Positions 6,858-64,000 of a stretch of DNA of 64,000 nucleotides are shown here, piece after piece. Source of the stretch: Coriobacteriia bacterium (lineage in GTDB: Bacteria; Actinomycetota; Coriobacteriia; Anaerosomatales; Anaerosomataceae); the NCBI GenBank assembly GCA_016926975.1, contig JAFGNP010000006.1, forward strand, positions 2,696 through 66,695, read 5' to 3'. The notes below the pieces were generated by a model that saw only the letters and a list, made by a program, of their open reading frames with translations, was not told the origin of the DNA and ran no database searches. The position numbers and the translations under genes are program-made. Every line of letters begins with the position of its first letter. Within the stretch, counting starts at the first letter, position 1.

Positions 6858-6866
6858 GGGACTGAC

Positions 6867-7448: not shown

Positions 7449-7455
7449 AAACGCT

Positions 7456-8448: not shown

Positions 8449-8780
8449 TGGCCGCTCACAACGTCGCCGTGATGGGGGAGTCCACGAGTGTCGCGGGCTT
8501 CCGGCCACTCGGCTTCGTAGTCTTCGCCGTCGATAAGCCCGAGGACGTCCGTAGCCGATGGAGCGAGATCGTGCAGGGCGGCTACGGGGTCGTGTTCGTA
8601 ACCGAGCCGGTTTATGCGGCGATAGACGATCTGGTGGCCGAGGTCGCCGACAGACCAGTGCCGGCCGTGACTGTGATTCCCGCTGCCGGATCCGCCGGCG
8701 GCGTTGGCGCCGCGAAGCTCGATCGTGCGATCGAGCGGGCGCTGGGCACTTCGGTGCCCTATCGAGAAGAGGAAGAGTAG
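8448..8780 (+). CDS. atpF: A/V-type ATP synthase subunit F
   Basis: 110 aa (VAVMGESTSVAGFRPLGF..VVFVTE). ATGA-type overlap with subunit C. Confidence 0.8.
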   Translation: MAAHNVAVMGESTSVAGFRPLGFVVFAVDKPEDVRSRWSEIVQGGYGVVFVTEPVYAAIDDLVAEVADRPVPAVTVIPAAGSAGGVGAAKLDRAIERALGTSVPYREEEE

Positions 8781-24843: not shown

Positions 24844-24924
24844 GCTTGGCCGGGGAAAGCCGTACGGCGGCCTGATCCAGCGGCCGCGCCAGACTCTCGC
24901 ATGTGGTCGCCGGTAGGGCTAGAG

Positions 24925-24953
24925 TTGCATAGAGGATCTGCCGAACTGCATAG
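24925..24953 (+). promoter_or_regulatory. Conserved upstream motif, copy 1 (before ord)
   Basis: TTGCATAGAGGATCTGCCGAACTGCATAG contains two TGCATA(G) half-sites 21 nt apart. The second half-site starts 25 nt before the ord ATG. A near-identical arrangement occurs at 32321-32349. Confidence 0.45.
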
Positions 24954-24970
24954 CCTCGGAAGGAGCCGGC

Positions 24971-25981: not shown

Positions 25982-26036
25982 GCGGACGAAGACGCCGCCC
26001 GCAACCGGGACGGCCGGAAGAGAGAGGGAGAGCGCC

Positions 26037-26390
26037 GTGCCAGACGCGTTCCGCTGCAGCGCCGGCGATTGGGTGGAGGTGGAGTACGTTCTCCTCCAGC
26101 CTGCCGAGCGCGCCTCCGGACTTCCGGCGGACACCGCTGCACAGCCGCTGCGTGCGTGGGTGAAGGGCTTCGCTCTCGCCGGGGGCATGATCGGCGACGA
26201 GGTCGAAATCGAGACGATGACCGGCCGAAAGGTGCGAGGGCGTCTCTCGGCTGTGAGCCCCGGCTACTCGCACACTTTCGGCACGCCGCTGCCGGAGATA
26301 GTCGGAATCGGCCGGGACTTGCGCGCGCGCGTCGCCGCGTACCGCGCGGCCACGCCAGGTGTACGCGTCGACCCCGAGGCGGGTGAGTGA
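26037..26390 (+). CDS. ortA: 2-amino-4-ketopentanoate thiolase alpha subunit
   Basis: 117 aa with GDWVEVEYVLL.P.ER...LP.DT...PL..WVKGF and SPGY.H.FG, as in OrtA. GTG start with GAGGGAG upstream. Confidence 0.75.
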   Translation: MPDAFRCSAGDWVEVEYVLLQPAERASGLPADTAAQPLRAWVKGFALAGGMIGDEVEIETMTGRKVRGRLSAVSPGYSHTFGTPLPEIVGIGRDLRARVAAYRAATPGVRVDPEAGE

Positions 26391-26391
26391 C

Positions 26392-27804
26392 GTGGCCTCC
26401 CGCTACGAGCAGGTGATGGCGCGCAAGGGCGAGATCATGAAGAGCGCGCTGGGCATGGACTACGCGCAGTTCGAGCGCAGTCCCATCGCTTTCGACTACG
26501 AGGGCATGATGGGCGCGCACGGCTACACTCTCGAGCAGATCCGGAGCATCCAGCGCGCCGCTGGTGTGGGACTGACGCCGCTGCTCGAACTTCGCAATCT
26601 CACGGATCTCGTGCGCTCCTATGCGGGACCGGGCCGTGGCGCGCGGCTGTTCGTGAAGGACGAGGCCGCCAACATGGCCGGCTCGTTCAAGGACCGCCGG
26701 GCGTCGATGAGCATCCACGTGGCGGCCGAGAAGGGGTACGCAGGAGTGATCGCGGCCACCTCCGGCAACTACGGCGCGGCGGTGGCAAGCCAGGCGGCGC
26801 GTGCCGGCCTGAAGTGCATCATCTGCCAGGAGACCTTCGACTCGCGCCACGTCGGCCAGCCGGAGATCGTCGAGAAGTCCCGCATCTGCGAGGCGTTCGG
26901 CGCCGAGGTCATTCAGATGACCGTGGGTCCCGAACTCTTCTTCCACATGCTCGAGCTTCTGGAACAGACCGGCTATCTTTCGGCATCGCTGTACTCGCCG
27001 TTCGGCGTGTCGGGCATCGAATCGCTCGGTGCGGAGCTGGCCGAGGAGATGACGGCGCTCACGGGCTCTCCGCCCACGCATGTGGTGGTGACGCACGCCG
27101 GCGGCGGGAACACCACGGGCACCGCGCGCGGCCTGAAGCGGATGGGCGCGAGGACTGAGATCGTGAGTGCGAGCGTGGACCTGTCGGGACTCCACATGGC
27201 GAGTGACACCGACTTCAACCGCAAGAGCTTCACCACCGGGCACACCGGCTTCGGAGTGCCGTTCGCCACGTGGCCGGACCGCGCCGACGTGCCCCGCAAC
27301 GCCGCGCGCTCGCTTCGCTACATGGATCGCTACCTCATCGTCACTCAAGGCGAGGTCTTCTACGTCACCGAGGCGCTCTCGAAGCTGGAGGGACTCGAGC
27401 GCGGGCCGTCCGGCAACACCGCGATGGCGGCGGCGATGTCGCTCGCGAGAGACCTGCCGCAAGACGCCACCGTGGTGGTACAGGAAACCGAGTACACGGG
27501 CGCAGGCAAGCACCACTGGAGCCAGCTGGCGTTCGCGCGCGAGCAGGGCATCGAAATGCGGGCCGGGAACCCAGCCGAGAACGCGCCCGGTAAGGCGATC
27601 GTGATCCCCGAGCGTCCCGAGCAGATCGCTGCGACGGACTTCGACCTCGGCAAGATGCGCCGGTCGTACGTGCGTAACGCGTTGCAGCACGCGCCGGAGG
27701 GTTACGAGCCGACGCCCGAGGACACGGTGTTCCTCGCCGAGGACACCAACACCACGCCGGCGATAGTCGAGGAGATCATCGCCGGGCTCCGGGCCGGTCA
27801 GTAG
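26392..27804 (+). CDS. ortB: 2-amino-4-ketopentanoate thiolase beta subunit (PLP-dependent)
   Basis: Trp-synthase-beta-like fold with the PLP lysine in NMAGSFKDRRAS. Follows ortA. GTG 26392 (1 nt after the ortA stop) is preferred, but 26359 and 26383 are also possible. Confidence 0.8.
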   Translation: MASRYEQVMARKGEIMKSALGMDYAQFERSPIAFDYEGMMGAHGYTLEQIRSIQRAAGVGLTPLLELRNLTDLVRSYAGPGRGARLFVKDEAANMAGSFKDRRASMSIHVAAEKGYAGVIAATSGNYGAAVASQAARAGLKCIICQETFDSRHVGQPEIVEKSRICEAFGAEVIQMTVGPELFFHMLELLEQTGYLSASLYSPFGVSGIESLGAELAEEMTALTGSPPTHVVVTHAGGGNTTGTARGLKRMGARTEIVSASVDLSGLHMASDTDFNRKSFTTGHTGFGVPFATWPDRADVPRNAARSLRYMDRYLIVTQGEVFYVTEALSKLEGLERGPSGNTAMAAAMSLARDLPQDATVVVQETEYTGAGKHHWSQLAFAREQGIEMRAGNPAENAPGKAIVIPERPEQIAATDFDLGKMRRSYVRNALQHAPEGYEPTPEDTVFLAEDTNTTPAIVEEIIAGLRAGQ

Positions 27805-29187: not shown

Positions 29188-30204
29188 CTAGACGAGCAGT
29201 CCGCCGAAAGCGTTGAACGCGTAACCGATCGCGAGGATACCGGTCACGACCAGCCCGAAGAACGTGGCCAGAAGCGGCGTCTTCACGACCTTCTTCAACA
29301 TCACGAGGGATGGCAGCGAGAGCGCCGTGACCGCCATCATGAACGCGAGCGCGGTGCCGATGCCCACGCCCTTGGCCACGAGCGCCTCGGCTATCGGAAG
29401 GGTGCCGAAGATGTCGGCGTACATCGGCACGCCCACGAGTGTGGCGAGCACCACCGAGAACGCGTTCTTCTCGCCCAGAACGGCAGCCACCCACTCGGCC
29501 GGTATCCATCCGTGGATGATGGCGCCTATGCCCACTCCGGCCAGCACGTACAGCCAGACCCGTTTCACGATGTCGGTCACTGCCTGCCAGCCGAAGGCGA
29601 TGCGGTCGCGGCGTGTCATCTCGGGCAACTCGGCATCCGCCAGGTGCGCGCCGTACACGAACGGTTCCACGAACCGCTCGAGTTTGAGCGCGCTGATGGT
29701 GGAGCCGCCGATGATGGCGAGCACCAATCCGGTGATCACGTAGGCGGCGGCGATCTTCCAGTTGAAGATGCTTGCCAGCAAGATGACTGAGGCGAGGTCC
29801 ACCAGCGGCGAGCATATGAGGAACGAGAACGTCACGCCGATAGGAAGACCCGCCGAGGTGAACCCGATGAAGAGCGGGATCGACGAACACGAGCAGAACG
29901 GCGTCAGAGTGCCGAGCAGCGCGCCGAGGGTGTTCGCTCCGATGCCGCTGAAGCGGCCGAGGATACGCTTGGTGCGCTCGGGAGGGAAGTAGCTCTGCAC
30001 GTACGAGATGGTGAAGATGAGCACCGAGAGCAGTACGAAGATCTTCACGACGTCGTAGACGAAGAACTGGATGCTCGCGCCCAGGCGTTCGTCCAACGGC
30101 AGGCGGAGCACGTTCTCGACGAACGCGCCAACCAGGTCGTTGAGCCAGAGCATCTTCAGGAGCTGGTCGTTCATCCAGGCGAACATGTCTGCAGCGCACC
30201 CCAT
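29188..30204 (-). CDS. Permease of the DUF318/ArsP-like family
   Basis: About 338 aa, polytopic, with the TPFCSCSSIP motif typical of this family. Only the 3' part of track ORF 29188..30927 is used. The start is ATG 30204 or 30186. Confidence 0.75.
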   Translation of the reverse strand: MGCAADMFAWMNDQLLKMLWLNDLVGAFVENVLRLPLDERLGASIQFFVYDVVKIFVLLSVLIFTISYVQSYFPPERTKRILGRFSGIGANTLGALLGTLTPFCSCSSIPLFIGFTSAGLPIGVTFSFLICSPLVDLASVILLASIFNWKIAAAYVITGLVLAIIGGSTISALKLERFVEPFVYGAHLADAELPEMTRRDRIAFGWQAVTDIVKRVWLYVLAGVGIGAIIHGWIPAEWVAAVLGEKNAFSVVLATLVGVPMYADIFGTLPIAEALVAKGVGIGTALAFMMAVTALSLPSLVMLKKVVKTPLLATFFGLVVTGILAIGYAFNAFGGLLV

Positions 30205-30248
30205 CCTGTCCTGCGAACTCTCCCTCTTGTGCTGCCGGTACTCTCTCC

Positions 30249-30276
30249 ATATACTTCGATGAGTATCGAAGTATAT
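30249..30276. promoter_or_regulatory. Perfect 12-4-12 inverted repeat in divergent promoter region (candidate ArsR operator)
   Basis: ATATACTTCGAT gagt ATCGAAGTATAT is AT-rich in a GC-rich genome. It lies between the divergent permease and DUF2703 genes. Confidence 0.45.
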
Positions 30277-30295
30277 TCTGTCGCAGTATACACGA

Positions 30296-30805
30296 ATGCC
30301 GGGTGGCGCAAGCGCCACGATGGGGCGGGAGTTCCGATCGTTCGAAGGAGGCCTTGTGAGCTGTGGTTGTAGCGGGCCGGTGAAGGTGCTCGTCGAGTTG
30401 GAGTACCTGGTGGTAGACGGTTCTACTTGCGAGCGCTGCGGCAGCACTCGCGAGGCGGTCCGGGCCGCAGTGACCGACGCGCGGGCGCTGTTCTCCTCAG
30501 CCGCTGTCGAGCTGGAGCTTGTCGAGCGCGAACTGGGAGCTTCGGAACTCGGGGACTCGAACCGGGTGCTGGTGAACGGTCGGCCCGCCGAGGAATGGCT
30601 GGGTGGTCGCTCGGTGATGACCGAGTGCGTCTCCTGCAGCGATATGCTCGGCACTGCGGTGTCCTGCAGGGAGGTCGAGGTGGGCGGGGTCCGCACCGAG
30701 GCGGTCGGTCGGGACGTAGTCTTCGACGCGATCATCGCGGCGTCCGGGACCGCTGCCGTCGGTGAGCCCACTGTTACTCTCGTCGGAGGGCCGGGGTGCG
30801 GTTGA
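30296..30805 (+). CDS. DUF2703 domain protein
   Basis: The pattern VELEYLVVDGSTCERCGST ... VLVNGRP.E ... ECVSCSDMLG..VSCREVEV matches the Cys pattern I recall for DUF2703, a family often linked to arsenic/redox loci. Start uncertain. The terminal TGA is discussed in findings. Confidence 0.6.
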   Translation: MPGGASATMGREFRSFEGGLVSCGCSGPVKVLVELEYLVVDGSTCERCGSTREAVRAAVTDARALFSSAAVELELVERELGASELGDSNRVLVNGRPAEEWLGGRSVMTECVSCSDMLGTAVSCREVEVGGVRTEAVGRDVVFDAIIAASGTAAVGEPTVTLVGGPGCG

Positions 30806-30871
30806 GGAGGAGACTCGTGCGACCCCGGTCCGGAGGTCGAGTTCGTGGGGCCCGAAGGCGCCACATGAGAC

Positions 30872-31129
30872 ATGCCGTCGGCGTGGCGTGTCCGCGTCGT
30901 CGAGAAGCGGCTTGAGAGCGTAGGCATCCGCGCGCTGGTGAGCGAGCGCGATGTCTACGCGCTTGATTCGGCCGACCGCGCGGCGGTGTTGGACGTCCTC
31001 GTCGGGGCCGAAGCATCCTTCCCGATGGTGCTCGTGAACGGGGCGGTCGTCTGTCACGGAGGAGTGGATCTGGATGCCGTCGCACGCAGCCTGCAGCAAG
31101 GACCCGCAAGTGCCGGCCGCTGTTGCTGA
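30872..31129 (+). CDS. Small thioredoxin-fold-like protein (ATG-bounded minimum; may extend upstream through TGA 30866-30868)
   Basis: 85 aa with SFPMVLVNGAVV (a cis-Pro strand pattern) and a C-terminal CC. No good RBS precedes ATG 30872. A GGAGG-spaced GTG lies at 30845, but an in-frame TGA intervenes. Confidence 0.35.
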   Translation: MPSAWRVRVVEKRLESVGIRALVSERDVYALDSADRAAVLDVLVGAEASFPMVLVNGAVVCHGGVDLDAVARSLQQGPASAGRCC

Positions 31130-31433
31130 GCTGGTAGCCGAAGAGCAGCTCGATGTCGCTCTCAAGGCGCTCGCCTCGGCACAGCGCCGCGAGATAGTGC
31201 GCTTCCTGCTTGCGAGTTGTGCAGCCGCAGGCAAGACCTGTTGTGCGGCCGACGAAGTGTGCGCGTGCAAGCTCTCGGAACACCTCGGTCTTGCCGCGTC
31301 GACGGTCTCTCACCACATGACTGCGCTGAAGGACGCCGGTATCGTGACGGCGCGCAAGGACGGCACCTGGGTCTACTACACGGTGCAGCGCGACGTGCTC
31401 CGTGCGGTGGCCGGATCGATCGAAGGGTTGTAG
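31074..31433 (+). CDS. ArsR/SmtB family metalloregulator
   Basis: LASAQRREIVRFLL ... CACKLSEHLGLAASTVSHHMTALKDAGIV..RKDGTWVYY is a winged-helix ArsR pattern with a Cys cluster before the recognition helix. The start is uncertain (overlaps the previous ORF). Confidence 0.8.
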   Translation: MPSHAACSKDPQVPAAVAELVAEEQLDVALKALASAQRREIVRFLLASCAAAGKTCCAADEVCACKLSEHLGLAASTVSHHMTALKDAGIVTARKDGTWVYYTVQRDVLRAVAGSIEGL

Positions 31434-31713: not shown

Positions 31714-32196
31714 GTGAGCGACGAGCGGGCCGAGGGTGCGATGCCTCAAACGGAGGCCGCTCCTGTGGCCTGGCGCCGGGGCAGGCTCCGGGTCGCGCTG
31801 ATCGCGCTGACGGTTATCGCGGTCGTCGGTGTCGCGGCGTTCCTCTCCGCCGAGGGCCCGGAGTCTCCTGCGCCTACGGGTGGTCCCTCGGTCACACTCG
31901 ACGCGGCGCTCGCCGCGGGGGAGCCTGTCTACATCCTCATTCACTCGCTCACTTGAGCCTCCTGCACCGAGCTCGCGGCGGTCGCTGCGGAGGTCATGCC
32001 CGAGTACGAGGGCCGCATCGTATACGTAGATGTGGTGACCAGCGAGCCTTCGGCCCGGCCGGTCCTCGAGCGCTACCCCACGCGGTACATCCCGACCTCG
32101 GTGTTCGTAGGCGCTGACGGTGCGGTGGTGGAGACCGTGATGGGCCCGCTGACCGAGGCGGGACTTCGGACGCGTTTGGACGTGCTCGCCGAGTAG
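31714..32196 (+). CDS. Membrane-anchored thioredoxin-like protein with in-frame TGA (candidate Sec, UxxC) at 31954-31956
   Basis: Track ORFs 31699..31956 and 31996..32196 are in the same frame. Joined, they read PVYILIHSLT-TGA-ASCTELAAVAAEVMPEYEGRIVYVDV..YIPTSVFV. This aligns residue for residue with the CPFC thioredoxin-like lipoprotein at 63420. N-terminal TM anchor. Start GTG 31714 has GGGAG upstream. Confidence 0.6.
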
Positions 32197-32349: not shown

Positions 32350-32370
32350 GCCGATCGGGGAGGAGCACGA

Positions 32371-32733
32371 ATGGCACGCGAGGACACGTTCGCGGAGGCG
32401 CGCAAGCATCTCGAAGGCCTGACCGACTCCGAGCTCGAGGCTCGCTTCTGGGAGCTGTCCGGGCAGTGCGTTGACCCGATGGTCGAGCTCGCTCGCACGC
32501 ACACGTCTCCCTCGATCGAGCGTAGCGTGCTCATGCGCATGGGAATCGACTCCCTGACCTGCAAGGCCGTGGTGGCCGAGTGCGAGGCGCGCGGTCTGCT
32601 GGGGCATGGTGCAGGTCACGTGATGCTTCTGGCTATGCGCGGGCTCGGTGTGGACGCACCAAGCGCGGCTGCGCGCCTGGCGGCAGGCGAGGGCTGGGAG
32701 TTCGCCGAGTCGAAGTGGGATGACGGGCGATGA
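32371..32733 (+). CDS. oraS: D-ornithine 4,5-aminomutase small subunit
   Basis: 120 aa with F.EAR.HL..L.D.ELE.RFWEL and PSIERSVLMRMG, as in OraS. Overlaps oraE (ATGA). Confidence 0.8.
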   Translation: MAREDTFAEARKHLEGLTDSELEARFWELSGQCVDPMVELARTHTSPSIERSVLMRMGIDSLTCKAVVAECEARGLLGHGAGHVMLLAMRGLGVDAPSAAARLAAGEGWEFAESKWDDGR

Positions 32734-34988
32734 GCGAGCAGGACGTTCACTTCGGCCGCCCGCTTTCAGACCCGCCGCTGTCGCCGGACGAGAAGCTCGA
32801 TGTCGCCGCGCTGCTCGACGGTCTCGAGCACTACCGCCCCCGCCGTCGCGGGTGGACGTGGCGCAAGCGAGTCCCGAACCAGCGCGCCTACGAGTTCACC
32901 TATCACGAGACCGCCGAGCCTCTAGAGCGCAGCATCCCGCTGCCCGCCGCGCACTACTTCGACAACATCGATCCTCAGCCCGACTGCGTGATCACAACGG
33001 AGATAGCTTCGGGCCGCCCGGAAGACGACATCCGCCGCATGCGGATGGCAGCGTGGCACGGCGCGGACCATCTGATGGTCATCCGTACCGCCGGCCAGAG
33101 TCATATGGACGGTCTGCTGGAGGGCACGCCTGAAGGTGTGGGAGGCATCGCGATCACGCGGAAGCAGCTCCGGTTCACGCGCCGCGCGCTCGATCTCATC
33201 GAGGAAGAGGTGGGTCGTCCGGTCAACTTCCACTCCTACGTGAGCGGCGTGGCGGGACCCGAGATAGCCGTGATGTTCGCCGAGGAGGGCGTGAACGGCG
33301 CGCACCAGGACCCGCAGTACAACGTGCTCTACCGCAACATCAACATGTACCGGAGTTTCGTGGACGCCGCGGAGGCCAAGCACGTCATGGCCTCGGCCGG
33401 CATCCTGCAGATAGACGGCGCGCACAACGCGAACGCAACGGCGATCAAGGCGTGGAAGGTGATGGCCGAGCTTCTGGTGCAGCATGCGGTCAACTGCGCG
33501 TTCTCCGAGGCCGTCGGCATGCCGGCCGAGCTGATAGCGCTGTCCACCGTTCCGCCGGACGCGGCGCCCGCGCCCTGCATGCGCATGGACCTACCTTACG
33601 CGATCGCGCTGCGCGACCTGTTCGGCAGGTACAAGATGCGGGCACAGCAGAACACCCGGTACATGGAGTCCGACGGTCGCGACGCGACGGTCTCGCACGT
33701 GATGAACCTGCTCATCTCGCGGCTCACGAGCGCGGATATACAGTCCACGATAACCCCCGACGAGGGGCGCAACGTGCCGTGGCACTACAACAACGTGGCC
33801 GCGGTGGACACTGCCAAGCAGTCGCTCATCGGGATGGACGGCCTGTGCGAGATGGTGAAGATCGACCGTGACAACCCCGAGTTGAAGGCGCGCGTGCGCG
33901 AGGTCAAGGAGCGCGCGGTGCTCTTCCTTGAGGCTATGCTCGAAGACGGCGGGTACTTCGCTGGTGTGGAGAAGGCGTACTTCGTCGATAGCGGCGAGTA
34001 TCCCGAGACCAACGACGACGGTATCGGCAGGGACAGCCAGGGTGGGGTGGCTGCGGGCTCGATCGTGCCGCGCGCTGACGACTATCTGGCGCCGGTGTGC
34101 CACCACTTCGGCGAAAACCACCTGGAGTTGTTGGCAGAGTACGGCGTGTCGCCCGAAAGCCGCGCCTGCGAGTTCATCGGCGGCTGCACGCTGTGCGACG
34201 ACTCGACGGTCCCGTTCATCGACGAGCTCGACCCCACCGACAACGCCCCCCTGCGCCTCATGCAGACTGCAGAAGCGCGCGAGCGAGGGCTCATCACTCC
34301 CGAGGTGGAGTGGGCGGGCGACGGCGTGGTGGTCGTCACGATGTTCCTGCCAGCCTCCGAGCAGGTGGCCGAGGCGGCTGCGCTCGAGCTCGGCCGCGAG
34401 ATGAATCTTGCCGACTGCGAGGTCATCCACAAACGCGTGATGCATCCGGCCGAGGGCGCGCTCGTCGAGCTCAAGGGTCGCCTTGACGCCACGGTCGACC
34501 TCACCACGCTGGAGATTCCGGAGCCGCCTGAGGTCCTCACCGACGAGGAGGTACGCGAGTTCGTGCACGAGCGCAACGTGCGTTGCGTGGCGGCCACCGT
34601 CGGCGAGGACGAGCACTCGGTGGGCATGCGTGAGATCATCGACATCAAGCACGGCGGCCTCGAGAAGTGGGGCTTCTCGGTCACCTACCTCGGGACCAGC
34701 GTACCGATCGAGAAGGTCCTCGATGCAGCCATCGAGCACGCTGCGAGCGCGGTGCTCATCTCCACGATCATCACGCACGCCGACGTTCATCGCGAGATGA
34801 TGCGCAAGCTCTCGGACCTGGCCGAGGAGAAGGGCGTGCGTGGCAGGCTCCTGCTCATCGCCGGAGGCACGCAGGTGACCGACGAGATCGCGCGCGACAG
34901 CGGCATGGACGCCGGATTCGGGCGCAGGACCAAGGGTATCGATGTGGCGAGCTTCATCGTGAAGACGATGCGAGAGCGGGAGATCTAG
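32730..34988 (+). CDS. oraE: D-ornithine 4,5-aminomutase large subunit (PLP and cobalamin-binding)
   Basis: 752 aa. TIM-barrel part plus a C-terminal Rossmann B12-binding module (ATVGEDEHSVGMREI, DxHxxG-like). Size and gene order fit OraE. Confidence 0.85.
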   Translation: MSEQDVHFGRPLSDPPLSPDEKLDVAALLDGLEHYRPRRRGWTWRKRVPNQRAYEFTYHETAEPLERSIPLPAAHYFDNIDPQPDCVITTEIASGRPEDDIRRMRMAAWHGADHLMVIRTAGQSHMDGLLEGTPEGVGGIAITRKQLRFTRRALDLIEEEVGRPVNFHSYVSGVAGPEIAVMFAEEGVNGAHQDPQYNVLYRNINMYRSFVDAAEAKHVMASAGILQIDGAHNANATAIKAWKVMAELLVQHAVNCAFSEAVGMPAELIALSTVPPDAAPAPCMRMDLPYAIALRDLFGRYKMRAQQNTRYMESDGRDATVSHVMNLLISRLTSADIQSTITPDEGRNVPWHYNNVAAVDTAKQSLIGMDGLCEMVKIDRDNPELKARVREVKERAVLFLEAMLEDGGYFAGVEKAYFVDSGEYPETNDDGIGRDSQGGVAAGSIVPRADDYLAPVCHHFGENHLELLAEYGVSPESRACEFIGGCTLCDDSTVPFIDELDPTDNAPLRLMQTAEARERGLITPEVEWAGDGVVVVTMFLPASEQVAEAAALELGREMNLADCEVIHKRVMHPAEGALVELKGRLDATVDLTTLEIPEPPEVLTDEEVREFVHERNVRCVAATVGEDEHSVGMREIIDIKHGGLEKWGFSVTYLGTSVPIEKVLDAAIEHAASAVLISTIITHADVHREMMRKLSDLAEEKGVRGRLLLIAGGTQVTDEIARDSGMDAGFGRRTKGIDVASFIVKTMREREI

Positions 34989-53785: not shown

Positions 53786-53944
53786 ACTGCCCCCGTTGAG
53801 AGTCTGTCTATTAGGCGCCGGTTCAGCGCGCGCCTACGCATTGTACCGCTTCCGCGCCGGATTCTGGTCAGAGCGTACACGGCTTGAAGTACGCGCTTTC
53901 CACAATGCCCTCCGAGGGCTATGATGACGCGGACAACCGAAGAT

Positions 53945-54057
53945 GGTGCAGGTGCCCGGGCAACCGGGAGAATAGGGAAGCCGGTGCGATTCCGGCGCGG
54001 ACCCGCCACTGTAACGAAGCTATCGATCGCTTCGAAGCCAGGAGACCTGCCTGTACC
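53945..54057 (+). promoter_or_regulatory. Cobalamin (B12) riboswitch aptamer
   Basis: AATAGGGAAGCCGGTGCGATTCCGGCGCGGACCCGCCACTGTAA plus the B12 box AGCCAGGAGACCTGCC. P1 is closed by GGUGCAGG (53945-52) pairing with CCUGUACC (54050-57). Confidence 0.9.
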
Positions 54058-54134
54058 AGCGCGACGCGGCCTTCGTGGTACGAGGCACACTCGCAGCGTT
54101 CTCGCCCGGCGCTCCGAACCCAGACCTCGAGCAC

Positions 54135-54172
54135 GAAGACCCCTGCCAGACGGCGAGGGTCTTCTTCGTTCT
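54135..54172 (+). terminator. Intrinsic terminator of the riboswitch expression platform
   Basis: GAAGACCCCUGCC [AGAC] GGCGAGGGUCUUC is a 13-bp stem with one mismatch, followed by UUCGUUCU. It lies 57 nt before the btuF-like ATG. Confidence 0.6.
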
Positions 54173-54228
54173 CGGGGCGCGTCATCTCTTCGGCAGGAGT
54201 GTACGGTTCGAGACGCAAGGAGGAAGAG

Positions 54229-55164
54229 ATGGAAGCACGAAATCGCATCAGAAGGTGGGTGGCGCTCGCCCTCACCGCCGCGTTGGCTCTCGGCGTACTT
54301 GCAGGATGTGGGGCCGACGAGACCACCGGGACGGACACGTTGTCGGAGGCGGCGTTTCCGGTCACGGTGACCGATGACACCGGTCGCGATGTGACGATAG
54401 CGGCCCGGCCGGAGCGCATCGTGAGCCTGGCGCCGGCCAACACCGAGATCGTTGCCGAGCTCGGTGCGCTGGACCGCCTGGTCGGCGTCACCGCGTACTG
54501 CGACTACCCGGAAGCGGTGGTCGGGATAGAGAAGGTCGGCGACTTCATGCAGCCGAATCTCGAGGCGATCGTGGCTCTCGACCCCGATCTGGTGCTGGTG
54601 ACCACCGGCGTGCAGGCGGAGATCGTCGGTCAGTTGGAAGCGCTCGGCGCTGCCGTGGTCGCGATCGACCCGCAGACTCTGGACGCGCTGTATGTCTCCA
54701 TCGGCACCGTGGGAGAGGCCATCGGCGAGACCGCCGCGGCCGACGAGCTCGTCGAGTCGATGCGCATCCAGATCGAGGACATCGGCGAGCAGGTCGAAGG
54801 TGCGCCTGTGACCTGCTTCCTTGAGATCTCGCAGGATCCGCTGTTCACGGTGGGCTCGGGTACCCTGCTCGACGATCTCATCCAGCACGCGGGCGGCCAG
54901 AACGTCGTTACCGACGAGGGCTACGTGGCGTACTCGGTGGAGCAACTCGTTGCAGCCGATCCCGATGTCTACCTGGCCACCCTCGGCTCGATGAGCGATC
55001 CGAGCGACATCATCGGTCGCCCGGGGTACTCGAACCTCTCGGCTGTGGCAGAGAACCGCGTCCACCTGCTCGACGACAACCTGGTCAGCCGCCCCGGTCC
55101 GCGCGTGGTAGAGGGCGTGCGGCTGATAGCCGAGGCGCTCCATCCGGACGTCTTCGACCAGTGA
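54229..55164 (+). CDS. Cobalamin/siderophore-type ABC substrate-binding lipoprotein (BtuF-like)
   Basis: ATG 54229 with AAGGAGGA upstream. Lipobox LAGC. RIVSLAPANTEI..ALG and DLV.. are typical of class III (PF01497-type) binding proteins. Riboswitch-controlled. Confidence 0.8.
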   Translation: MEARNRIRRWVALALTAALALGVLAGCGADETTGTDTLSEAAFPVTVTDDTGRDVTIAARPERIVSLAPANTEIVAELGALDRLVGVTAYCDYPEAVVGIEKVGDFMQPNLEAIVALDPDLVLVTTGVQAEIVGQLEALGAAVVAIDPQTLDALYVSIGTVGEAIGETAAADELVESMRIQIEDIGEQVEGAPVTCFLEISQDPLFTVGSGTLLDDLIQHAGGQNVVTDEGYVAYSVEQLVAADPDVYLATLGSMSDPSDIIGRPGYSNLSAVAENRVHLLDDNLVSRPGPRVVEGVRLIAEALHPDVFDQ

Positions 55165-55165
55165 T

Positions 55166-56191
55166 ATGACGCCCACGTCCGACAGATCGCGAGGCCCTCT
55201 CACTCTGGTGGGCCTCGGCGTGGCGCTCGTGCTCGCGCTTCTCGCGGGCGTTGCGTTCGGCGCCGTACCGATCTCGCCGGGCGATGTCGTGGGAGCCGTG
55301 TCCCGGGCGCTTGCGGGGCACGGCTCCACGCTGGCCGACGCCGTGGTCGTAGACCTCCGTCTGCCGAGGGTGCTGCTGACCGCGCTGGTAGGCGCGTCAC
55401 TCGCGCTTGCGGGCGTGCTCTACCAGGCGCTCTTCAAGAACCCGCTGGCCGACCCTTACATCCTCGGCGTGTCCTCGGGCGCCGGTCTGGGCGCCACCCT
55501 GGCGCTGGCGGTGTTCGGGACGAGCTACCTGGCCCGTGCAGCAGGCGTGCCGCTGGGGGCCTTCGCCGGAGCGGCGCTGGCGATGCTCGTTGTGGTTCGT
55601 CTGGCTTCTCGAAGGGGCCGAATGGACCCCACGTCGCTTCTGCTCGCGGGCATCGCGATCTCCTACATCCTCTCGGCGCTGACATCGTTCGTCCTGCTGT
55701 TCAACCGGGAGTCGATGACGAGCGTCGTCTACTGGATGATGGGCAGCCTCGGCAGCAGGTCCTGGGAGCACGTGGGGATACTGGCGGTGATGTTCTCTCT
55801 GGGTGCCGTGATCCCGGTGCTTTACCACCGCGAGCTCGACCTGATGCTTCTGGGTGACGAGCGCGCCGGGCAGCTGGGAGTATCGGTGGAGAGGTTCAAG
55901 CTGCTTGCTCTGGGCTCGGCGTCGCTCGTGGTGGCCGGAGCCGTTTCGGTGTCCGGGCTCATCGGCTTTGTCGGCCTGATGACGCCGCACATGGTAAGGC
56001 TCGTGCTCGGCCCGCGGCACCGGCTGCTGCTTCCGGCTTCCGTTCTCACAGGAGCGATCGTGCTCGTGCTAGCCGACCTCATCGCACGGGTGGTGCTGGC
56101 ACCGGTGGAGATCCCGGTGGGCATCATCACCGCGCTCGCCGGCGGGCCGTTCTTCATCTGGCTTCTGATCCGCAAGGAGCGTGCGAGATGA
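55166..56191 (+). CDS. FecCD/BtuC family ABC permease
   Basis: 341 aa, polytopic, with RLPRVL..LVGA.LA.AG...Q..F.NPLADP.ILG.SSGA and a C-terminal PVG..TAL.G.PFF. Confidence 0.9.
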   Translation: MTPTSDRSRGPLTLVGLGVALVLALLAGVAFGAVPISPGDVVGAVSRALAGHGSTLADAVVVDLRLPRVLLTALVGASLALAGVLYQALFKNPLADPYILGVSSGAGLGATLALAVFGTSYLARAAGVPLGAFAGAALAMLVVVRLASRRGRMDPTSLLLAGIAISYILSALTSFVLLFNRESMTSVVYWMMGSLGSRSWEHVGILAVMFSLGAVIPVLYHRELDLMLLGDERAGQLGVSVERFKLLALGSASLVVAGAVSVSGLIGFVGLMTPHMVRLVLGPRHRLLLPASVLTGAIVLVLADLIARVVLAPVEIPVGIITALAGGPFFIWLLIRKERAR

Positions 56192-57462
56192 GCGGCGCTG
56201 GTGGCACCGCGCTGGCATTCGAGGCTGCGGCGGTAGGCTACGGCGACCGCACCGTGGTGCACGGAGTGTCCTTCGAGGTGCGCGCCGGTGAGTTCGTAGG
56301 TCTCGTGGGGCCCAACGGTGCTGGCAAGTCCACACTGCTGCGTGCGGTGACCGGGGGCGCCGATATCGGTGAGGGAGACATCACCAGCGAGGGAGCGTCC
56401 CTGCTGCGTATGCCCGACCGGGACCGCGCGCGATTGGTGGGCGTGGTCCCGCAGTCCGCGGTCGCGCTCTTCGCCTTCACGGCGCGCGCGTTCGTCGAGA
56501 TGGGCCGCCACCCGCATCTGGGGCGGCTCGCCGCACTCGGCCAGGAAGACGATGCGGTGGTCGACGGAGTGATGGAGCGGACCGATACCTCGCGGTTGGC
56601 TGCGGAGCGCGTGGACGAGCTTTCCGGCGGTGACCTGCAGCGCCTGACACTCGCGCAGGCTCTTGCCCAGCAGCCGCGAGTGCTGCTCCTCGACGAGCCG
56701 ACGAGTCACCTCGACCTCAACCACGCACTCCAGGTGCTCGATCTCGTGCGCTCGCTGGCCGACGGCGGGATGGCCGTGCTCGGTGTCTTCCACGACCTCG
56801 GCATCGCTGCGCGCTATGCCGACCGCATCGCGATCGTCGCTGACGGTCGCGTGACGCCTCCCGTGCCGCCTGCCGAGGCGTTGAGTGCGCGGGTCGTCTC
56901 CGACGTCTTCGGGGTCCGGGCGGTAGTGCGCACGGATCCCGTGACCGGCAGCGTTGCGGTTACGCCGGTGCTGCGTGGCGAGGACCTCGAGCGGCATGCC
57001 GAGCTGGGCACTGTCGGTCTGGTGTGCGGTTCGGGTGCCGGGGCATCGCTCATGCGGCAGCTCATGCTCGCAGGCTACGGCGTTGCCGCCGGGGCGCTCA
57101 ACCGCGGCGACGTCGACCAGTCGGTCGCCGAGGCGCTCGGCGCGGGGTACGTGCCGCTGCCGCCTTTCGACGAAGTGGGGCCGGTCGCCTCGGCCGAGGT
57201 CGCGGGCTCCTTTGCGAGCGCCGCGTGCGTCGTGGTGTGTCCGACGCCGTTCGGCAGGTCGAACCTCCCGAACTTGCAGGCGGCGATCGATTCAGGGAGG
57301 CCGCTCGTGCTGATGGGCGACATGGACGCCGAGCGCGACTTCACCGGAGGTGAGGCCACGAAGCTGTGGGCCGAGGCGCTGGCCGCGGGAGCCGAGCGGG
57401 TAGAGACTGAGGCAGAGGCGCTCGAGGTCGTCGGGCGACACGGCGGAGCGGAGAGGCGATGA
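56188..57462 (+). CDS. ABC transporter ATPase (BtuD/FepC-like) with about 160-aa C-terminal extra domain
   Basis: Walker A GPNGAGKST, signature LSGGDLQR and Walker B LLLDEP lie in residues 1-260. Residues about 265-424 form an additional Gly/Ala-rich domain (VGLVCGSGAGASLMRQL...). Confidence 0.85.
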   Translation: MSGAGGTALAFEAAAVGYGDRTVVHGVSFEVRAGEFVGLVGPNGAGKSTLLRAVTGGADIGEGDITSEGASLLRMPDRDRARLVGVVPQSAVALFAFTARAFVEMGRHPHLGRLAALGQEDDAVVDGVMERTDTSRLAAERVDELSGGDLQRLTLAQALAQQPRVLLLDEPTSHLDLNHALQVLDLVRSLADGGMAVLGVFHDLGIAARYADRIAIVADGRVTPPVPPAEALSARVVSDVFGVRAVVRTDPVTGSVAVTPVLRGEDLERHAELGTVGLVCGSGAGASLMRQLMLAGYGVAAGALNRGDVDQSVAEALGAGYVPLPPFDEVGPVASAEVAGSFASAACVVVCPTPFGRSNLPNLQAAIDSGRPLVLMGDMDAERDFTGGEATKLWAEALAAGAERVETEAEALEVVGRHGGAERR

Positions 57463-57989
57463 CTTCGGCAGAAAGCGGGCTCGTCCAGGTCTACACCGGC
57501 GACGGCAAGGGCAAGACTACAGCTGCCGTGGGCCTTGCAGTACGCGCTGTCGGCGTCGGCATGACAGTGGCGTTCGTGCAGTTCGTGAAGGGCGGCAGCC
57601 GGTCAGGCGAGCTCGCGGTTCTGGAGGAGCTCGGCGTTCGCGTCGAGCGCCCCGCTGTGCACTCCACCGGGCTGCTCGGCGGCGGACTCACGGACGACGA
57701 CCGCGAGGCTGCTCGTGAAGCGTGGGAGATCGCGGCCGGAATCCTTAGCACAGCCGAGTACGACGTCGTGGTCCTCGACGAGATCAACGTGGCGATGCGC
57801 TACGAACTGGTGGCGGAAGCCGATGTGCTCGCCACACTCGACGCGCGGTTGCCGGGCGTGGAGGTCGTGCTGACCGGGCGGGGAGCGTCTGAGGCTCTGA
57901 TCGCCCGGGCGGATCTCGTCACCGAGATGGTGGCGCGCAAGCACCCGTTCGAGGCTGGCGTCCCCGCCCGACGCGGGATCGAGTACTGA
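57459..57989 (+). CDS. cobO: Cob(I)yrinic acid a,c-diamide / cob(I)alamin adenosyltransferase (CobO/BtuR type)
   Basis: VYTGDGKGKTTAA.G.A.RA.G.G..V..VQF.KG ... VVLDE ... TGR is the classical CobA/CobO pattern. Confidence 0.9.
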   Translation: MTSAESGLVQVYTGDGKGKTTAAVGLAVRAVGVGMTVAFVQFVKGGSRSGELAVLEELGVRVERPAVHSTGLLGGGLTDDDREAAREAWEIAAGILSTAEYDVVVLDEINVAMRYELVAEADVLATLDARLPGVEVVLTGRGASEALIARADLVTEMVARKHPFEAGVPARRGIEY

Positions 57990-59333: not shown

Positions 59334-59579
59334 ATGACCGTGAAGGTGTTCGCCCTATCGACCTGCCCGTACTGCCGAATGGCACGCAAGTATCTTGACG
59401 ACAACGGTGTCGCCTACGAGGTCGTTGAAGTCGATCTTCTCGAAGGTGACGAGAGATCTGCTGCGGTCGCCGAGGTGAAGGAGATATCGGGGGGCACGTC
59501 GTTTCCAGTGATGCTGCTCGATGGAGAGCTGATAGTAGGCTTCAACAAGAAGCGGATGAAGGAGCTGTTGGGTCTGTGA
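59334..59579 (+). CDS. Glutaredoxin/NrdH-like small redoxin (CPYC)
   Basis: 81 aa reading VKVFALSTCPYCRMARKYLDDNGV.YEVV.VD...TSFPVMLLDGELIVGF. Confidence 0.85.
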   Translation: MTVKVFALSTCPYCRMARKYLDDNGVAYEVVEVDLLEGDERSAAVAEVKEISGGTSFPVMLLDGELIVGFNKKRMKELLGL

Positions 59580-60253
59580 GCGAGGGGGAGGGGCGCTCCG
59601 TCCGTCGGCGCTTCGCCGAGGGGACGACGGTAGACGATCTCAGGGTCTACATGGGTCCGTTTGTCGCCACTCTCGGCTACAAGTTCAACACTGAGGCGGA
59701 CTTCGTGGACGAGGTCCTGAACTCGGAGATCGAGATACTGGACGCTACCGGCGATGTCTACTGCCCGTGTCGCATCCGTACGGGCGATCCCAAAGAGGAC
59801 CTCAAGATCGTCTGTCCGTGTATTCCTTTCCACTCAGAGCAGTTCGCCGCGATGCGCAAGTGCTGGTGTGGGCTGTTCATCCGGGATGATGTCGAAGATG
59901 GCGCAGATCTCCTCGGCGTGATCGAAGAGCCTTCACCCGGCGAGAGAGTGGAAGTCCCTGTCTGCCGGGTGAGCGACCTCGCGCCGGGACAGGTCCGGCA
60001 CGTGAAGGTGGGAAGGTCGGATGTCGCGATAGCGCGTGTTGCCGACGAGTTCTTCGCCCTCTCGAACGTCTGCAGGCATGCCTTCGGGCCTCTGTCCGAC
60101 GGGGTCCTAGAGGGGTACGAAGTGATGTGCCCGTGGCACGGCTGGCGTTACGACGTGCGCGACGGATCGACCGATCATCCGGATGCCGACGTGAAGACGT
60201 ACCCGGTTGTCGTGCGCGACGGGTTGGTCCTGGTGAGCGTCACCGCAAGGTAG
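59576..60253 (+). CDS. Ferredoxin:thioredoxin reductase catalytic-subunit-like domain fused to a Rieske [2Fe-2S] domain
   Basis: N-terminal half: YCPCR-x14-CPC-x13-CWCGLF, compared with FTR-c CPC..CPC..CHC. C-terminal half: CRH-x16-CPWH, a Rieske CxH...CxxH. GTG overlaps the glutaredoxin stop (GTGA). Confidence 0.7.
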   Translation: MSEGEGRSVRRRFAEGTTVDDLRVYMGPFVATLGYKFNTEADFVDEVLNSEIEILDATGDVYCPCRIRTGDPKEDLKIVCPCIPFHSEQFAAMRKCWCGLFIRDDVEDGADLLGVIEEPSPGERVEVPVCRVSDLAPGQVRHVKVGRSDVAIARVADEFFALSNVCRHAFGPLSDGVLEGYEVMCPWHGWRYDVRDGSTDHPDADVKTYPVVVRDGLVLVSVTAR

Positions 60254-61734: not shown

Positions 61735-62634
61735 CTAGTTGGGTACTTCCTCCGCCTCGTCGCCGAGTGGCGTGAAGCCGCGCTCTGCCGCGACGCACTC
61801 AAGCGGCACCAGTACGATCTCCTCGAGTTCGGGGACCGCTCTGACGGTCAGCTCTTTCTCGACCGAGACGGGGGTGTAGCCATGACAGCTCTTGCACGTG
61901 TGCACGCGATGCCCCGGGTCCTTCTCATCGTAAAGATACTCGAGGTCTTCCTGCCTGCGCGTGCCGCACCGGGCGCATCGCACGCGTGCGTACTCCCACT
62001 GGGTTCGACACAGCGGGCAGCTCAGCCACCGGCGCCCGCCCTGTAGCTCGCCTTCGTCTCGGACGATCCCGGAAGAGGCCGGAGTCCCGCATACCGGGCA
62101 CAATCCGGAGTCCCACATGAGCCAGTCGAACTTGCCCGCAGCCTCCACGGCCCTCTTCGCCGGTCCGATCAGGAACGGCGTGATGGCTTCGGCAAGCACG
62201 AACGACAGCAGCGGCTCAGTGATGCGCTCGTCGGCCACCGAACCGGCAACCAGCTGAACGAAGACATCGTAGCCCGACAGCGCTTTGCCGAGGGCGTCTT
62301 CGGAGACTGCGGCACCAAGGTCGGCCTCCCTGAGGGCTGTCACCTGGTCGTCGGGAAGCCCTGACTCCTCAGCCATCAGCGCTGCGATCGCCCGCACGGC
62401 CTCACGGTAGGGCTCGAGGGGGATCTCGGGAGCGGCCAGGGAGAACAACGTACGGTGCTGCTTGAGGACCTTCTGGACTTCGTCAACCGATGAATCCAGG
62501 GTGTACCCGGAGGCCAGCTCCGAGAACCTGCTCTGCGCCTCCCAGAGCTTCTCGAACAGTGCGAGCTGATGCTCGAGGTCGGGGCGTTCGGCCCTGTACT
62601 TCTCGACCGCTTTGGCCCGTGCGGAATCAGTCAT
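61735..62634 (-). CDS. fdhE: FdhE-like formate dehydrogenase accessory protein
   Basis: 299 aa with C-terminal rubredoxin-like CPVCG...CPLC...CARCG...CKSCHGY clusters typical of FdhE. Confidence 0.75.
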   Translation of the reverse strand: MTDSARAKAVEKYRAERPDLEHQLALFEKLWEAQSRFSELASGYTLDSSVDEVQKVLKQHRTLFSLAAPEIPLEPYREAVRAIAALMAEESGLPDDQVTALREADLGAAVSEDALGKALSGYDVFVQLVAGSVADERITEPLLSFVLAEAITPFLIGPAKRAVEAAGKFDWLMWDSGLCPVCGTPASSGIVRDEGELQGGRRWLSCPLCRTQWEYARVRCARCGTRRQEDLEYLYDEKDPGHRVHTCKSCHGYTPVSVEKELTVRAVPELEEIVLVPLECVAAERGFTPLGDEAEEVPN

Positions 62635-62780
62635 GGTACCTCCAAGTAGTCATCCCTTACCCGTGGGACCCCGTCGTACCCCCGCGTTTCGCCGACGCGT
62701 ATGCCGGACGCATCGCTACGCGGGTACAATGGTACAGAGGCCACCAGGTCAGTCTACACGTTTGTGAGGAGGGACGGGGT

Positions 62781-63371
62781 ATGAGGATGAGAGCGGCACC
62801 GCTCCTTATCGCAGGGCTGGCGCTGGCAGCCCTGACGATCGTGGGGTGCACGTCCGACGGAGGGTCCACGGACGTCGCGGACTCGGAAGAGGCAACCGAG
62901 CAGAACGGCTTGGAAGTCGGCACCGAGGCGCCCGACTTCCGCATGAAGAACCAAGACCAGCAGACGTTCGCCCTCTCCGACTACAAGGGTACCAAGAACG
63001 TCGTTCTGGTGTTCTACCCGGCCGATTTCACGCCCGTTTGAGAAGGCGAGCTGTCCGGGTACCGTGACAACTACCAGTACTTCCAGGAGCGCGACACCGA
63101 GGTCTTCGGCATTAGTGCTGACGGTTGGGCATCGCACGCGGAGTTCAGGCGTCAGCTCGAGCTTCCTTTCGATCTGCTTTCCGACTGGGACCGCGAAGTG
63201 ATGCCGGCATATGGCGCGTTCAGCCCGCGGACCAAGATCGCCAACAGGTGGAGCTTCCTGATCGACAAGGAGGGTATCGTTCGCTTCACCCAACACACCG
63301 GTCTCAACGAGCCCCGTGATGTTGAAGCGATGATGGAAGAGGTCGACAAGCTCTATCAGGAGCAGCAGTAA
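62781..63371 (+). CDS. Lipoprotein peroxiredoxin (Bcp/AhpC-TSA type) with in-frame TGA (candidate Sec) at 63039-63041
   Basis: ATG 62781 with GAGGAGGGA upstream. Lipobox TIVGC. EAPDF....VVLVFYPADFTPV-TGA-EGEL, followed by 109 further in-frame codons with the rest of the Prx fold (VFGISAD...FPLLSDW-like...FLIDKEG). TAA at 63369-63371. Confidence 0.7.
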
Positions 63372-63419: not shown

Positions 63420-63872
63420 ATGAGGCGGCTAGTCACGGTGGTACTTGTTGTCGCGCTTGCCGCGGTGCTGAGTGTCGGCATCGCCGGCTGCGATGAAGGC
63501 GCCACCACCGAAGAGAAGGCACCCTTGCACTTCATCCAGTTCTTCGATCCGGACTGCCCGTTCTGCCAGGCGATGGAGCCGACGGTGGACAAGCTTCGCG
63601 AGGAGTACGAGCCCAGGATCGAGAAGTTCGAGATCATCGATGTCTCCACGACCGAGGGCCTTGCACAGGCCGATGAGTACGGAGTGTTCATCACGCCGAC
63701 ATTCATCATCCTCGACGCGGAGGGCGAGGAGCTAGACCGCGTACAGGGTGCGGCGACCGAGGAGAGCATGATCAAGTTCATCGATCGCGGCATCGACGAT
63801 GTGACCGGGACGGCATCCGGCCCGCGTGAAGAGATACCCACCACGGGTGGTACCGAGCAGGGCAGCGAGTAG
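63420..63872 (+). CDS. Thioredoxin-like lipoprotein (CPFC)
   Basis: ATG 63420 with AGGAGGG upstream. Lipobox IAGC. FFDPDCPFCQAMEP...ITPTFIILD. It is the Cys paralogue of the TGA-containing ORF at 31714. Confidence 0.8.
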   Translation: MRRLVTVVLVVALAAVLSVGIAGCDEGATTEEKAPLHFIQFFDPDCPFCQAMEPTVDKLREEYEPRIEKFEIIDVSTTEGLAQADEYGVFITPTFIILDAEGEELDRVQGAATEESMIKFIDRGIDDVTGTASGPREEIPTTGGTEQGSE

Positions 63873-63890: not shown

Positions 63891-63924
63891 AGAGGGCCGG
63901 ATCCCTGTGGGGATCCGGCCCTCT
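63891..63924. terminator. Strong hairpin, probable bidirectional intrinsic terminator
   Basis: AGAGGGCCGGAUCCC [UGUG] GGGAUCCGGCCCUCU is a perfect 15-bp stem followed by UUUG. On the other strand an open frame ending ...ELKKGDNVIVE-stop (TAA, 63951-63953) converges on it. Confidence 0.7.
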
Positions 63925-64000
63925 TTGCGTGCGAGGTGCAGGTGAGTGGATTACTCCACGATCACATTGTCACCCTTCTTGAGCTCTTCCTTCGCCCAGG

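Follow-up and report, generated by a model that had tools for sequence, protein, structure and literature searches.

Bacterial peroxiredoxins (Prx) that use selenocysteine (Sec) in a TxxU motif are common in genome and metagenome surveys, and a 2026 review table lists the Prx selenoprotein family before the entries that it labels "Predicted with high confidence." Members of this family (PF00578) have in common the fold, a peroxidatic Sec in a PxxxTxxU motif, and an in-frame hairpin after the UGA, and an experimentally verified type, PrxU, is a named NCBIfam equivalog. A second set of related systems consists of extracytoplasmic thiol-peroxidase and thiol-disulfide oxidoreductase lipoproteins and predicted exported selenoproteins, which likewise carry out thioredoxin (Trx)-fold redox chemistry outside the cytoplasm, some of them with Sec as part of the redox motif. 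Here we analyze a 64,000-nucleotide stretch of DNA from a Coriobacteriia bacterium (contig JAFGNP010000006.1), referred to below as the window, in which the plus-strand gene at 62781 to 63371 is predicted to encode an AhpE-like Prx lipoprotein with a single Sec and a precursor of 196 residues. The core finding is a member of the established Sec-Prx family. We assign a probability of about 0.88 to the reading that a single intact gene at 62781 to 63371 encodes an exported, lipid-anchored Prx, with the UGA at 63039 to 63041 specifying its peroxidatic Sec. In contrast to bacterial Sec-Prx proteins in general and to PrxU, the window protein lacks a resolving Cys, carries a signal peptide and lipobox, and is encoded next to a dedicated Trx-like lipoprotein partner within a formate dehydrogenase (FDH) cluster.

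The open reading frame (ORF) starts at the ATG at 62781, 7 nt after a Shine-Dalgarno sequence (GAGGAGG, 62767 to 62773, plus strand) that can be read directly from the sequence, and runs for 86 codons, ending in ...NVVLVFYPADFTPV, to the TGA at 63039 to 63041, where gene callers end it. Beyond this codon, which is the single in-frame TGA within 62781 to 63371, the same frame stays open for 109 further codons up to a TAA at 63369 to 63371. With the TGA read as Cys, the read-through product matches Pfam AhpC-TSA (PF00578) over profile positions 1 to 123 of 124 (E value = 4.5e-39; domain score, 133.6 bits, against a gathering cutoff of 26). The match spans the TGA, and therefore neither half alone is a complete domain. 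Translation and the Pfam match thus confirm what the original prediction had read from the DNA, i.e., a TGA-interrupted frame whose 109 further codons complete an AhpC/TSA fold.

The best solved-structure match of the product is Mycobacterium tuberculosis AhpE (Rv2238c; PDB 1XVW/1XXU; E value of ~1e-28), and the TGA, at residue 87 (plus strand), aligns with the single peroxidatic Cys of that enzyme. The catalytic residues are P80, T84, U87, and R156, the first three in the stretch P80-A-D-F-T84-P-V-U87 and the Arg in IANRW. The PxxxTxxU motif and this Arg are invariant in 15 orthologues, and the active-site Pro, Thr, and Arg of AhpE are retained; peroxidase activity is predicted. The likeness to AhpE includes a single peroxidatic residue, the lack of a resolving Cys (in the window protein, the residue at +5 is Ser), and the motifs F-x-P-x-x-F-T-x-x-C/U-x-G-E-L and I-A-N-R. 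The differences are that AhpE uses Cys, whereas the window protein has Sec in its place, with export and lipidation predicted and a Trx-like partner encoded alongside. AhpE is cytoplasmic and is reduced via mycoredoxin and mycothiol; the signal peptide and lipobox pattern of the window protein, in contrast, predict export.

The nearest Cys-containing homologues are actinobacterial peroxiredoxins of ~152 to 157 residues that have no lipobox and are ~45% identical to the window protein. They read C-E-G-E-L-C, with a second Cys five residues after the first, where the window protein reads U-E-G-E-L-S. Once the signal peptide is removed, the only Cys left in the window protein is that of the lipobox, and no other Cys is found in 22 of the 23 mature proteins of the subfamily. 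Such a "1-Sec" peroxiredoxin can finish its catalytic cycle only with the help of an external thiol. A UxxC or UxxU redox motif is absent as well (U-E-G-E, without Cys at +3). In this respect the window protein, with its TxxU, differs from the predicted exported selenoproteins (thiol:disulfide interchange protein, DsbA-like, and Prx-like), which have UxxC; in the clade of the window, the UxxC/CxxC role belongs to the separate Trx-like partner. The window Prx scored below the cutoff of every curated NCBIfam model. The best model was PrxU (NF040737), with 81.5 bits against an equivalog cutoff of 270, and we therefore reject orthology to PrxU, even though the active site is predicted to function as in PrxU. 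The label "PrxU-type" given in the original prediction is accordingly not borne out, the nearest characterized relative being AhpE.

In a protein search, the three closest full-length matches had Trp at the Cys position (FYPLDFTPVWTGEL), and two other close matches were C-terminal fragments starting just past that position. At the DNA level, the five closest database relatives (L001 to L005; contig G+C content of 38 to 60%; 51 to 83% amino acid identity) all have TGA at the identical codon. We scanned 185,579 species-representative genomes with the degenerate pattern F-Y-P-x-D-F-T-P-V-TGA, for which we estimate a chance expectation of ~0.3 matches from the information content of the pattern, and obtained 63 matches, 18 in the subfamily of the window and 45 in other Sec-peroxiredoxins. 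The scanned set lacks the genome of the window itself, and the best relative in it is ~80% identical. Fourteen of the 18 subfamily genomes are Actinomycetota/Coriobacteriia metagenome-assembled genomes (MAGs) with proteins ~63 to 80% identical to the window protein, and the other four are more distant MAGs, one each from Actinomycetota, Spirochaetia, Desulfobacterales, and Thermodesulfobacteriota. A scan of metagenomes used a subfamily-specific pattern in which the third base of the critical codon was left free; all 19 matches had TGA, and none had TGC, TGT, or TGG, with at least two of these contigs seeming to duplicate genome matches. The five database relatives and the 18 genome members, with TGA throughout, cover G+C contents of 38 to 67% and three phyla. 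Judged from these alignments, the conservation of the TGA position is far beyond chance and holds in every relative examined. Together with the AhpE alignment, the TGA conserved in these three partly overlapping sets (5, 18, and 19 relatives) supports the earlier proposal that a lipoprotein of the AhpC/TSA fold carries Sec as its peroxidatic residue. The subfamily appears to be obligately selenium dependent, as no Cys form was found.

The 45 other Sec-peroxiredoxins, which have no lipobox, come from Acidobacteriota, Clostridia, Bacillaceae, and other lineages. Among them, a separate cluster of lipobox-less Bacillaceae proteins (L006, L009, L011, L017, L025, L027, L032, L039, L049, L061, and L063) has the motif FFYP[SAN]DFTPV-U-xTELAAVAA and includes cultured Bacillus, Robertmurraya, Mesobacillus, and Heyndrickxia genomes. 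A 2006 survey recorded few selenoproteins for the Bacillaceae group.

The fact that gene callers stop at the TGA, together with the absence of visible Sec machinery from the window, would fit a pseudogene or an assembly or sequencing error in an ordinary Cys-peroxiredoxin, with nothing functional past codon 86. We regard this as extremely improbable, as the same TGA is present in all subfamily members, in independent assemblies and different phyla, and is never replaced by TGC or TGT. In addition, the 109 downstream codons are open and have a purifying pattern, with amino acids conserved and third positions variable; the protein sequence after the TGA is 72 to 92% identical within the close clade.

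The Trp residues in public gene calls bear on another explanation, namely, that the UGA is decoded without SelB or a Sec insertion sequence (SECIS), either as Trp or Gly in a reassigned genetic code or as Cys or Trp through near-cognate read-through. Three relatives (P0002, P0003, and P0004, from loci L001 to L003) indeed show Trp for the Sec codon, but this is an artefact of gene calling under code 4, which had been selected because the contigs are short. The public calls for L002 and L003 continue past the true stop and produce spurious C-terminal extensions, and extra in-frame TGAs occur only where the call overran the true stop. Many well-supported genes of the window terminate with TGA, and conserved Trp residues of the Prx family are encoded by TGG. 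When the window was scanned for in-frame TGAs with coding composition on both sides, 63039 and 31954 were found, plus three other matches that read as antisense frames of other genes, although this is not cleanly settled for the match labeled 7151-. Antisense frames aside, such TGAs thus occur only at two redox-Cys positions. Moreover, a conserved RNA element lies right after the UGA, and an FdnG gene with its canonical Sec site adjoins the locus in relatives, all of which makes decoding as another amino acid very unlikely. The conservation of the TGA, its use as an ordinary stop, and the use of TGG for Trp together exclude a pseudogene, an assembly error, and code reassignment for practical purposes, and the stop codon within the gene almost certainly encodes Sec at the catalytic site, as far as sequence comparison can tell. 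Three same-frame ORF pairs in the window that are split by a TGA (35899/37333, 37944/39177, and 41100/42129) were considered for read-through and rejected, as they look like separate genes.

The Val codon directly before the UGA (63036 to 63038) is GTT in all 15 close-clade genes, a codon that is rare in these GC-rich genomes, whereas distant-clade genes have GTC or GTG there. The invariant GTT may reflect a context or structural requirement for recoding.

A SECIS-like hairpin, AG.UGUCCGG[GUA]CCG(U)GACA.CU, follows the UGA at 63049 to 63072 (plus strand), where its fold energy, frozen synonymous sites, and likeness to FdnG hairpins were considered. Its core at 63052 to 63069 (UGUC-CGG [GUA] CCG-U-GACA) has the loop GUA at 63059 to 63061, 17 nt from the UGA, and a bulged U at 63065, and is present as the original prediction had claimed. 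An A-U and a G-C pair can extend the stem across a C·A mismatch to 63049 to 63072, and an optional further G-G/C-C extension reaches 63045 to 63075. The folding energy is -8.0 kcal/mol for the hairpin alone and -10.3 kcal/mol with the G-G/C-C extension. The published model of bacterial SECIS elements (bSECIS; PMC13188914) has a loop of 3 to 9 nt with a G in the first two loop positions, an upper stem of 4 to 16 bp, a distance of 16 to 37 nt from the UGA, and a minimum free energy (MFE) of no more than -7.5 kcal/mol. The hairpin agrees with this model in all four respects, with its GUA loop, 7 bp and one bulge (plus 2 bp), distance of 17 nt, and energy of -8.0 kcal/mol.

The significance of the hairpin comes only from comparative data, in which frozen synonymous sites coincide with the predicted structure. 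In a codon alignment of 15 close-clade genes (71 to 99% pairwise amino acid identity), synonymous diversity was 0.055 in codons +3 to +14 after the UGA and 0.42 (0.421 to three decimals) elsewhere in the gene, and these codons have the lowest 12-codon synonymous diversity in the gene (Mann-Whitney P value = 5e-6). Fourfold and sixfold degenerate codons do not vary within the frozen region, where Ser is encoded by TCC and Gly by GGG in 15 of 15 genes, whereas three or four different codons serve for these residues elsewhere. Among the close-clade sequences examined, only three hairpin positions vary: the bulge (U or A), C13 (changed to U), and G12 (a single change to A). With C13 changed to U, a U-A pair takes the place of the C·A mismatch, and the energy falls to -12.3 kcal/mol. 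Most relatives tested show a pairing probability of 0.96 or more for the hairpin.

SelB must recognize every SECIS in a cell, and the FdnG genes of close relatives offer a comparison. Two of them read UGUCUCC-GGUCU-GGGGGCA and UGUCCAA-GGU-UUGGGCA after the UGA. Both form 7-bp stems that start 14 to 15 nt after the U of the UGA and close with a small G(G)U loop, a geometry that the Prx hairpin (UGUCCGG-GUA-CCG·GACA) shares. Prx genes of the distant clade have longer hairpins that are overstable in comparison with synonymous recoding (z of -1.4 to -4.4).

Several results weigh against Sec insertion directed by this hairpin and against the Prx-Trx system built on it. The MFE of the 62-nt context in the window is not significant in comparison with either dinucleotide shuffles (z = +0.84) or synonymous recoding (z = -0.5), and energy is therefore not used as evidence for the window. 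In a 66-nt context, the pairing probability of the window hairpin is 0.5, with a competing fold. The original prediction had placed the hairpin within the range expected for SECIS elements, and this part stands in that the hairpin agrees with the bSECIS model, but it carries little weight, as 65% of 400 random TGA triplets (in a window of 65% G+C) also pass; we therefore reject the model as standalone evidence. The close-clade hairpin is almost invariant, and no compensatory double substitutions were seen. By inspection, the outer stems of the distant clade differ in register, with C18 paired to G46, G48, or G49 depending on the member, so that there is no single covarying structure for the whole subfamily. 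A structure common to the close and distant clades was accordingly rejected, and column-wise covariation is not meaningful for them. Beyond the hairpin, a Pfam survey of ~40 ORFs for SelA, SelB, and SelD and a search for tRNA-Sec found none of selA, selB, selC, and selD in the 64-kb window. No Sec machinery gene was seen in the fetched flanks of relatives either, and a search of 19 of their loci found no tRNA-Sec, a result that is uninformative because these flanks are short. Finally, no CcdA/DsbD-type electron conduit for the Trx-like lipoprotein was seen nearby.

The weakness of the window hairpin and its competing fold, together with the longer hairpins in other registers in the distant clade, would also be expected if Sec is encoded but the small hairpin is not the functional SECIS, with another or larger structure in that role or with the frozen codons serving a pause for export. 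A candidate extended stem involves the UGA itself and UUCUU at codons +13 and +14, the MFE folds of several relatives include a lower stem GAGAA/UUCUU, and the GTT before the UGA is invariant. On the other hand, the freezing falls on the hairpin codons, the changes that are tolerated are confined to the bulge, the conversion of a mismatch into a pair, and one G12-to-A substitution, and the position and loop motif match both the hairpins of the neighboring FdnG genes and the published model (PMC13188914). We therefore consider a different SECIS unlikely and retain the small hairpin as the candidate element.

We infer that the organism uses Sec, because the window contains another candidate and because relatives have Sec-FdnG genes beside the same gene pair. 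The second TGA-at-Cys gene, which had been pointed out together with the Prx, is real in that its TGA was found again by the systematic scan. This Trx-like selenoprotein candidate at 31714 to 32196 (plus strand; TGA at 31954 to 31956) has the motif T-U-A-S-C (HSLT-TGA-ASC), an N-terminal hydrophobic segment, and a weak match to Pfam Thioredoxin (E value = 9e-4). The sequence UCGCGGC-GGUC-GCUGCGG, a stem of 7 bp capped by a GGUC loop, lies 23 nt past the UGA. The gene is located downstream of an ArsR-type regulator gene (31038 to 31430) and near an ArsP_1 permease gene (29191 to 30954, minus strand).

The N terminus of the Prx points to a location outside the cytoplasm. The signal peptide MRMRAAPLLIAGLALAALTIVG, followed by the lipobox Cys23 (TGC at 62847 to 62849; the whole segment at 62781 to 62849, plus strand), fits a strict lipoprotein pattern similar to PROSITE PS51257, with a basic region, a hydrophobic stretch, and a lipobox Cys. 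This strict lipobox occurs in 18 of the 23 subfamily members (the window protein and 17 of 22 relatives) but in none of the 45 other Sec-Prx genes, and three further subfamily members have an L-x-G-C box. Export and Lgt/LspA-type processing and lipidation on Cys23 are thus predicted.

Directly downstream, at 63420 to 63872 (plus strand), lies a gene for a Trx-like lipoprotein with the lipobox IAGC and the active site CPFC (Pfam Thioredoxin; E value = 2.7e-12), which we propose as the reductant of the selenenic acid. A homologue of this gene directly follows the Prx gene in 22 of 22 relatives with sequence there, and this pairing in every such locus strengthens the earlier suggestion that the Trx-like lipoprotein is a plausible reductant; we regard it as the likely one. 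In the distant clade, the first active-site Cys of the partner is itself replaced by TGA (U-P-x-C). The loci concerned are L001, L002, L005, L045, L057, L015, L060, L074, and L081, with DPK-U-PIC, DPT-U-PYC, and similar motifs. With Sec in the partner in the distant clade and Cys in the clade of the window, the module contains one or two selenoproteins depending on the lineage, and a comparison of the Cys and Sec forms of the partner, a pair made by nature, could help to explain the choice of Sec.

In the mechanism that we envisage, the small hairpin, which begins ~10 nt downstream of the UGA and has a GUA loop and a bulged U, would recruit SelB with Sec-tRNA(Sec), and the ribosome would insert Sec at 63039 rather than terminate. 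After export via the signal peptide and lipidation of Cys23, the protein would stay anchored on the outer side of the cytoplasmic membrane. There, Sec87 together with P80, T84, and R156 would reduce H2O2 or organic or lipid hydroperoxides and be converted to a selenenic acid. Because the mature Prx has no other Cys, resolution and reduction of the selenenic acid are proposed to fall to the CPFC Trx-like lipoprotein, presumably co-transcribed, which would be re-reduced in turn by a further donor. Located in the FDH cluster, the Prx-Trx pair would probably protect the exported, oxidant-sensitive Sec/molybdopterin enzyme or the membrane around it.

The gene neighborhood links the pair to formate metabolism on both sides. 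An FdhE-like accessory gene at 61735 to 62634 (minus strand), divergent from the Prx gene, matches Pfam FdhE_central (E value = 5.7e-11) and scores 53 bits with TIGR01562, under the cutoff of 187. Every close-clade locus has it in the same place, L002 and L005 contain it as well, and past it lie NfeD-like and SPFH/HflK-like genes. At the other side, 63951 to 64000 (minus strand) holds the terminal 15 codons, with the stop, of a gene for an FdnI-like cytochrome b whose C terminus is as in relatives; the final 48 nt of the window encode WAKEELKKGDNVIVE and the stop, and the window is cut where the convergent FDH operon begins. At the same position, L008 and L036 hold a convergent fdnG-fdnH-fdnI operon whose fdnG product contains Sec and a Tat signal. 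Given the FdnI tail at the window end and these two operons, a third selenoprotein gene probably lies a few kilobases beyond the window. Sec-FdnG (HQARI-TGA-HS) is found in five relatives (L005, L008, L036, L045, and L057), and the order in L005 is Rex, Prx, Trx, FdnG(Sec), FdnH, FdnI, and FdhE. Between the convergent trx-like and fdnI-like genes, at 63891 to 63924, lies a perfect 15-bp inverted repeat (AGAGGGCCGGATCCC / GGGATCCGGCCCTCT, with a 4-nt loop), which is probably a bidirectional terminator; a simple terminator scan missed it because its T-run is short.

The Sec-FdnGHI and FdhE genes are therefore genomic neighbors of the Prx-Trx pair in the clade of the window and in distant relatives, and FdnG shares with the Prx its nature as an exported selenoenzyme and a similar SECIS geometry. 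FdnG is, on the other hand, an unrelated protein that is exported in folded form via a Tat signal, and gene neighborhood is its only tie to the pair. Judged by that neighborhood only, the association suggests protection of an exported, oxidant-sensitive Sec/molybdopterin enzyme. It is a tentative idea, and one that we hold to be doubtful, that the two lipoproteins form a dedicated extracytoplasmic module functionally coupled to this FDH. Such a module could act as an on-site peroxide guard for the oxidant-sensitive enzyme or, more radically, as an electron sink in which extracytoplasmic formate oxidation drives peroxide reduction. The locus suggests a link, open to testing, between extracytoplasmic peroxide defense and FDH in anaerobes.

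In a limited literature search, we found no description of an exported, lipoprotein, or AhpE-type Sec-Prx or of an FDH-linked Prx. The AhpE-like lipoprotein form without a resolving Cys, its apparently obligate Sec, the obligate Trx-like lipoprotein partner alternating between Cys and Sec, and the cross-phylum position in FDH clusters seem to be undescribed and have no curated model. Together, these genes outline a coherent cross-phylum subfamily of predicted exported selenoenzymes, in which an AhpE-like 1-Sec lipoprotein is accompanied by an obligate Trx-like partner. No principle of Sec decoding or of Prx chemistry is changed by this. Public protein sets routinely split, truncate, or mistranslate the gene (with Trp at Sec), an annotation error that is corrected here, and mistranslation as Trp under code 4 is a systematic artefact that can flag selenoprotein genes.

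Elsewhere in the window, the gene at 59576 to 60253 (plus strand), which is syntenic with the cluster in close relatives, encodes a ferredoxin:thioredoxin reductase catalytic-subunit domain (CPC...CPC) fused to a Rieske [2Fe-2S] domain; it matches the NCBIfam "FtrB family double-selenoprotein" model weakly (43 bits against a cutoff of 160) and is here an all-Cys form. At gathering thresholds, Rfam found only one tRNA and one cobalamin riboswitch in the window. The riboswitch (53933 to 54068, plus strand; 87.9 bits) lies within 53815 to 57989, and downstream of it are genes for a periplasmic binding protein, a FecCD permease, and, further on, a BtuR/CobO adenosyltransferase; the region looks like a B12 uptake and salvage locus. 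Ornithine fermentation genes at 24923 to 27801 and 32350 to 34985 include those for 2,4-diaminopentanoate dehydrogenase, a pyridoxal phosphate enzyme, and the alpha and B12-binding subunits of D-ornithine 4,5-aminomutase. These genes, together with a V/A-type ATPase operon at 4123 to 11960, fit an anaerobic, amino-acid-fermenting actinobacterium.

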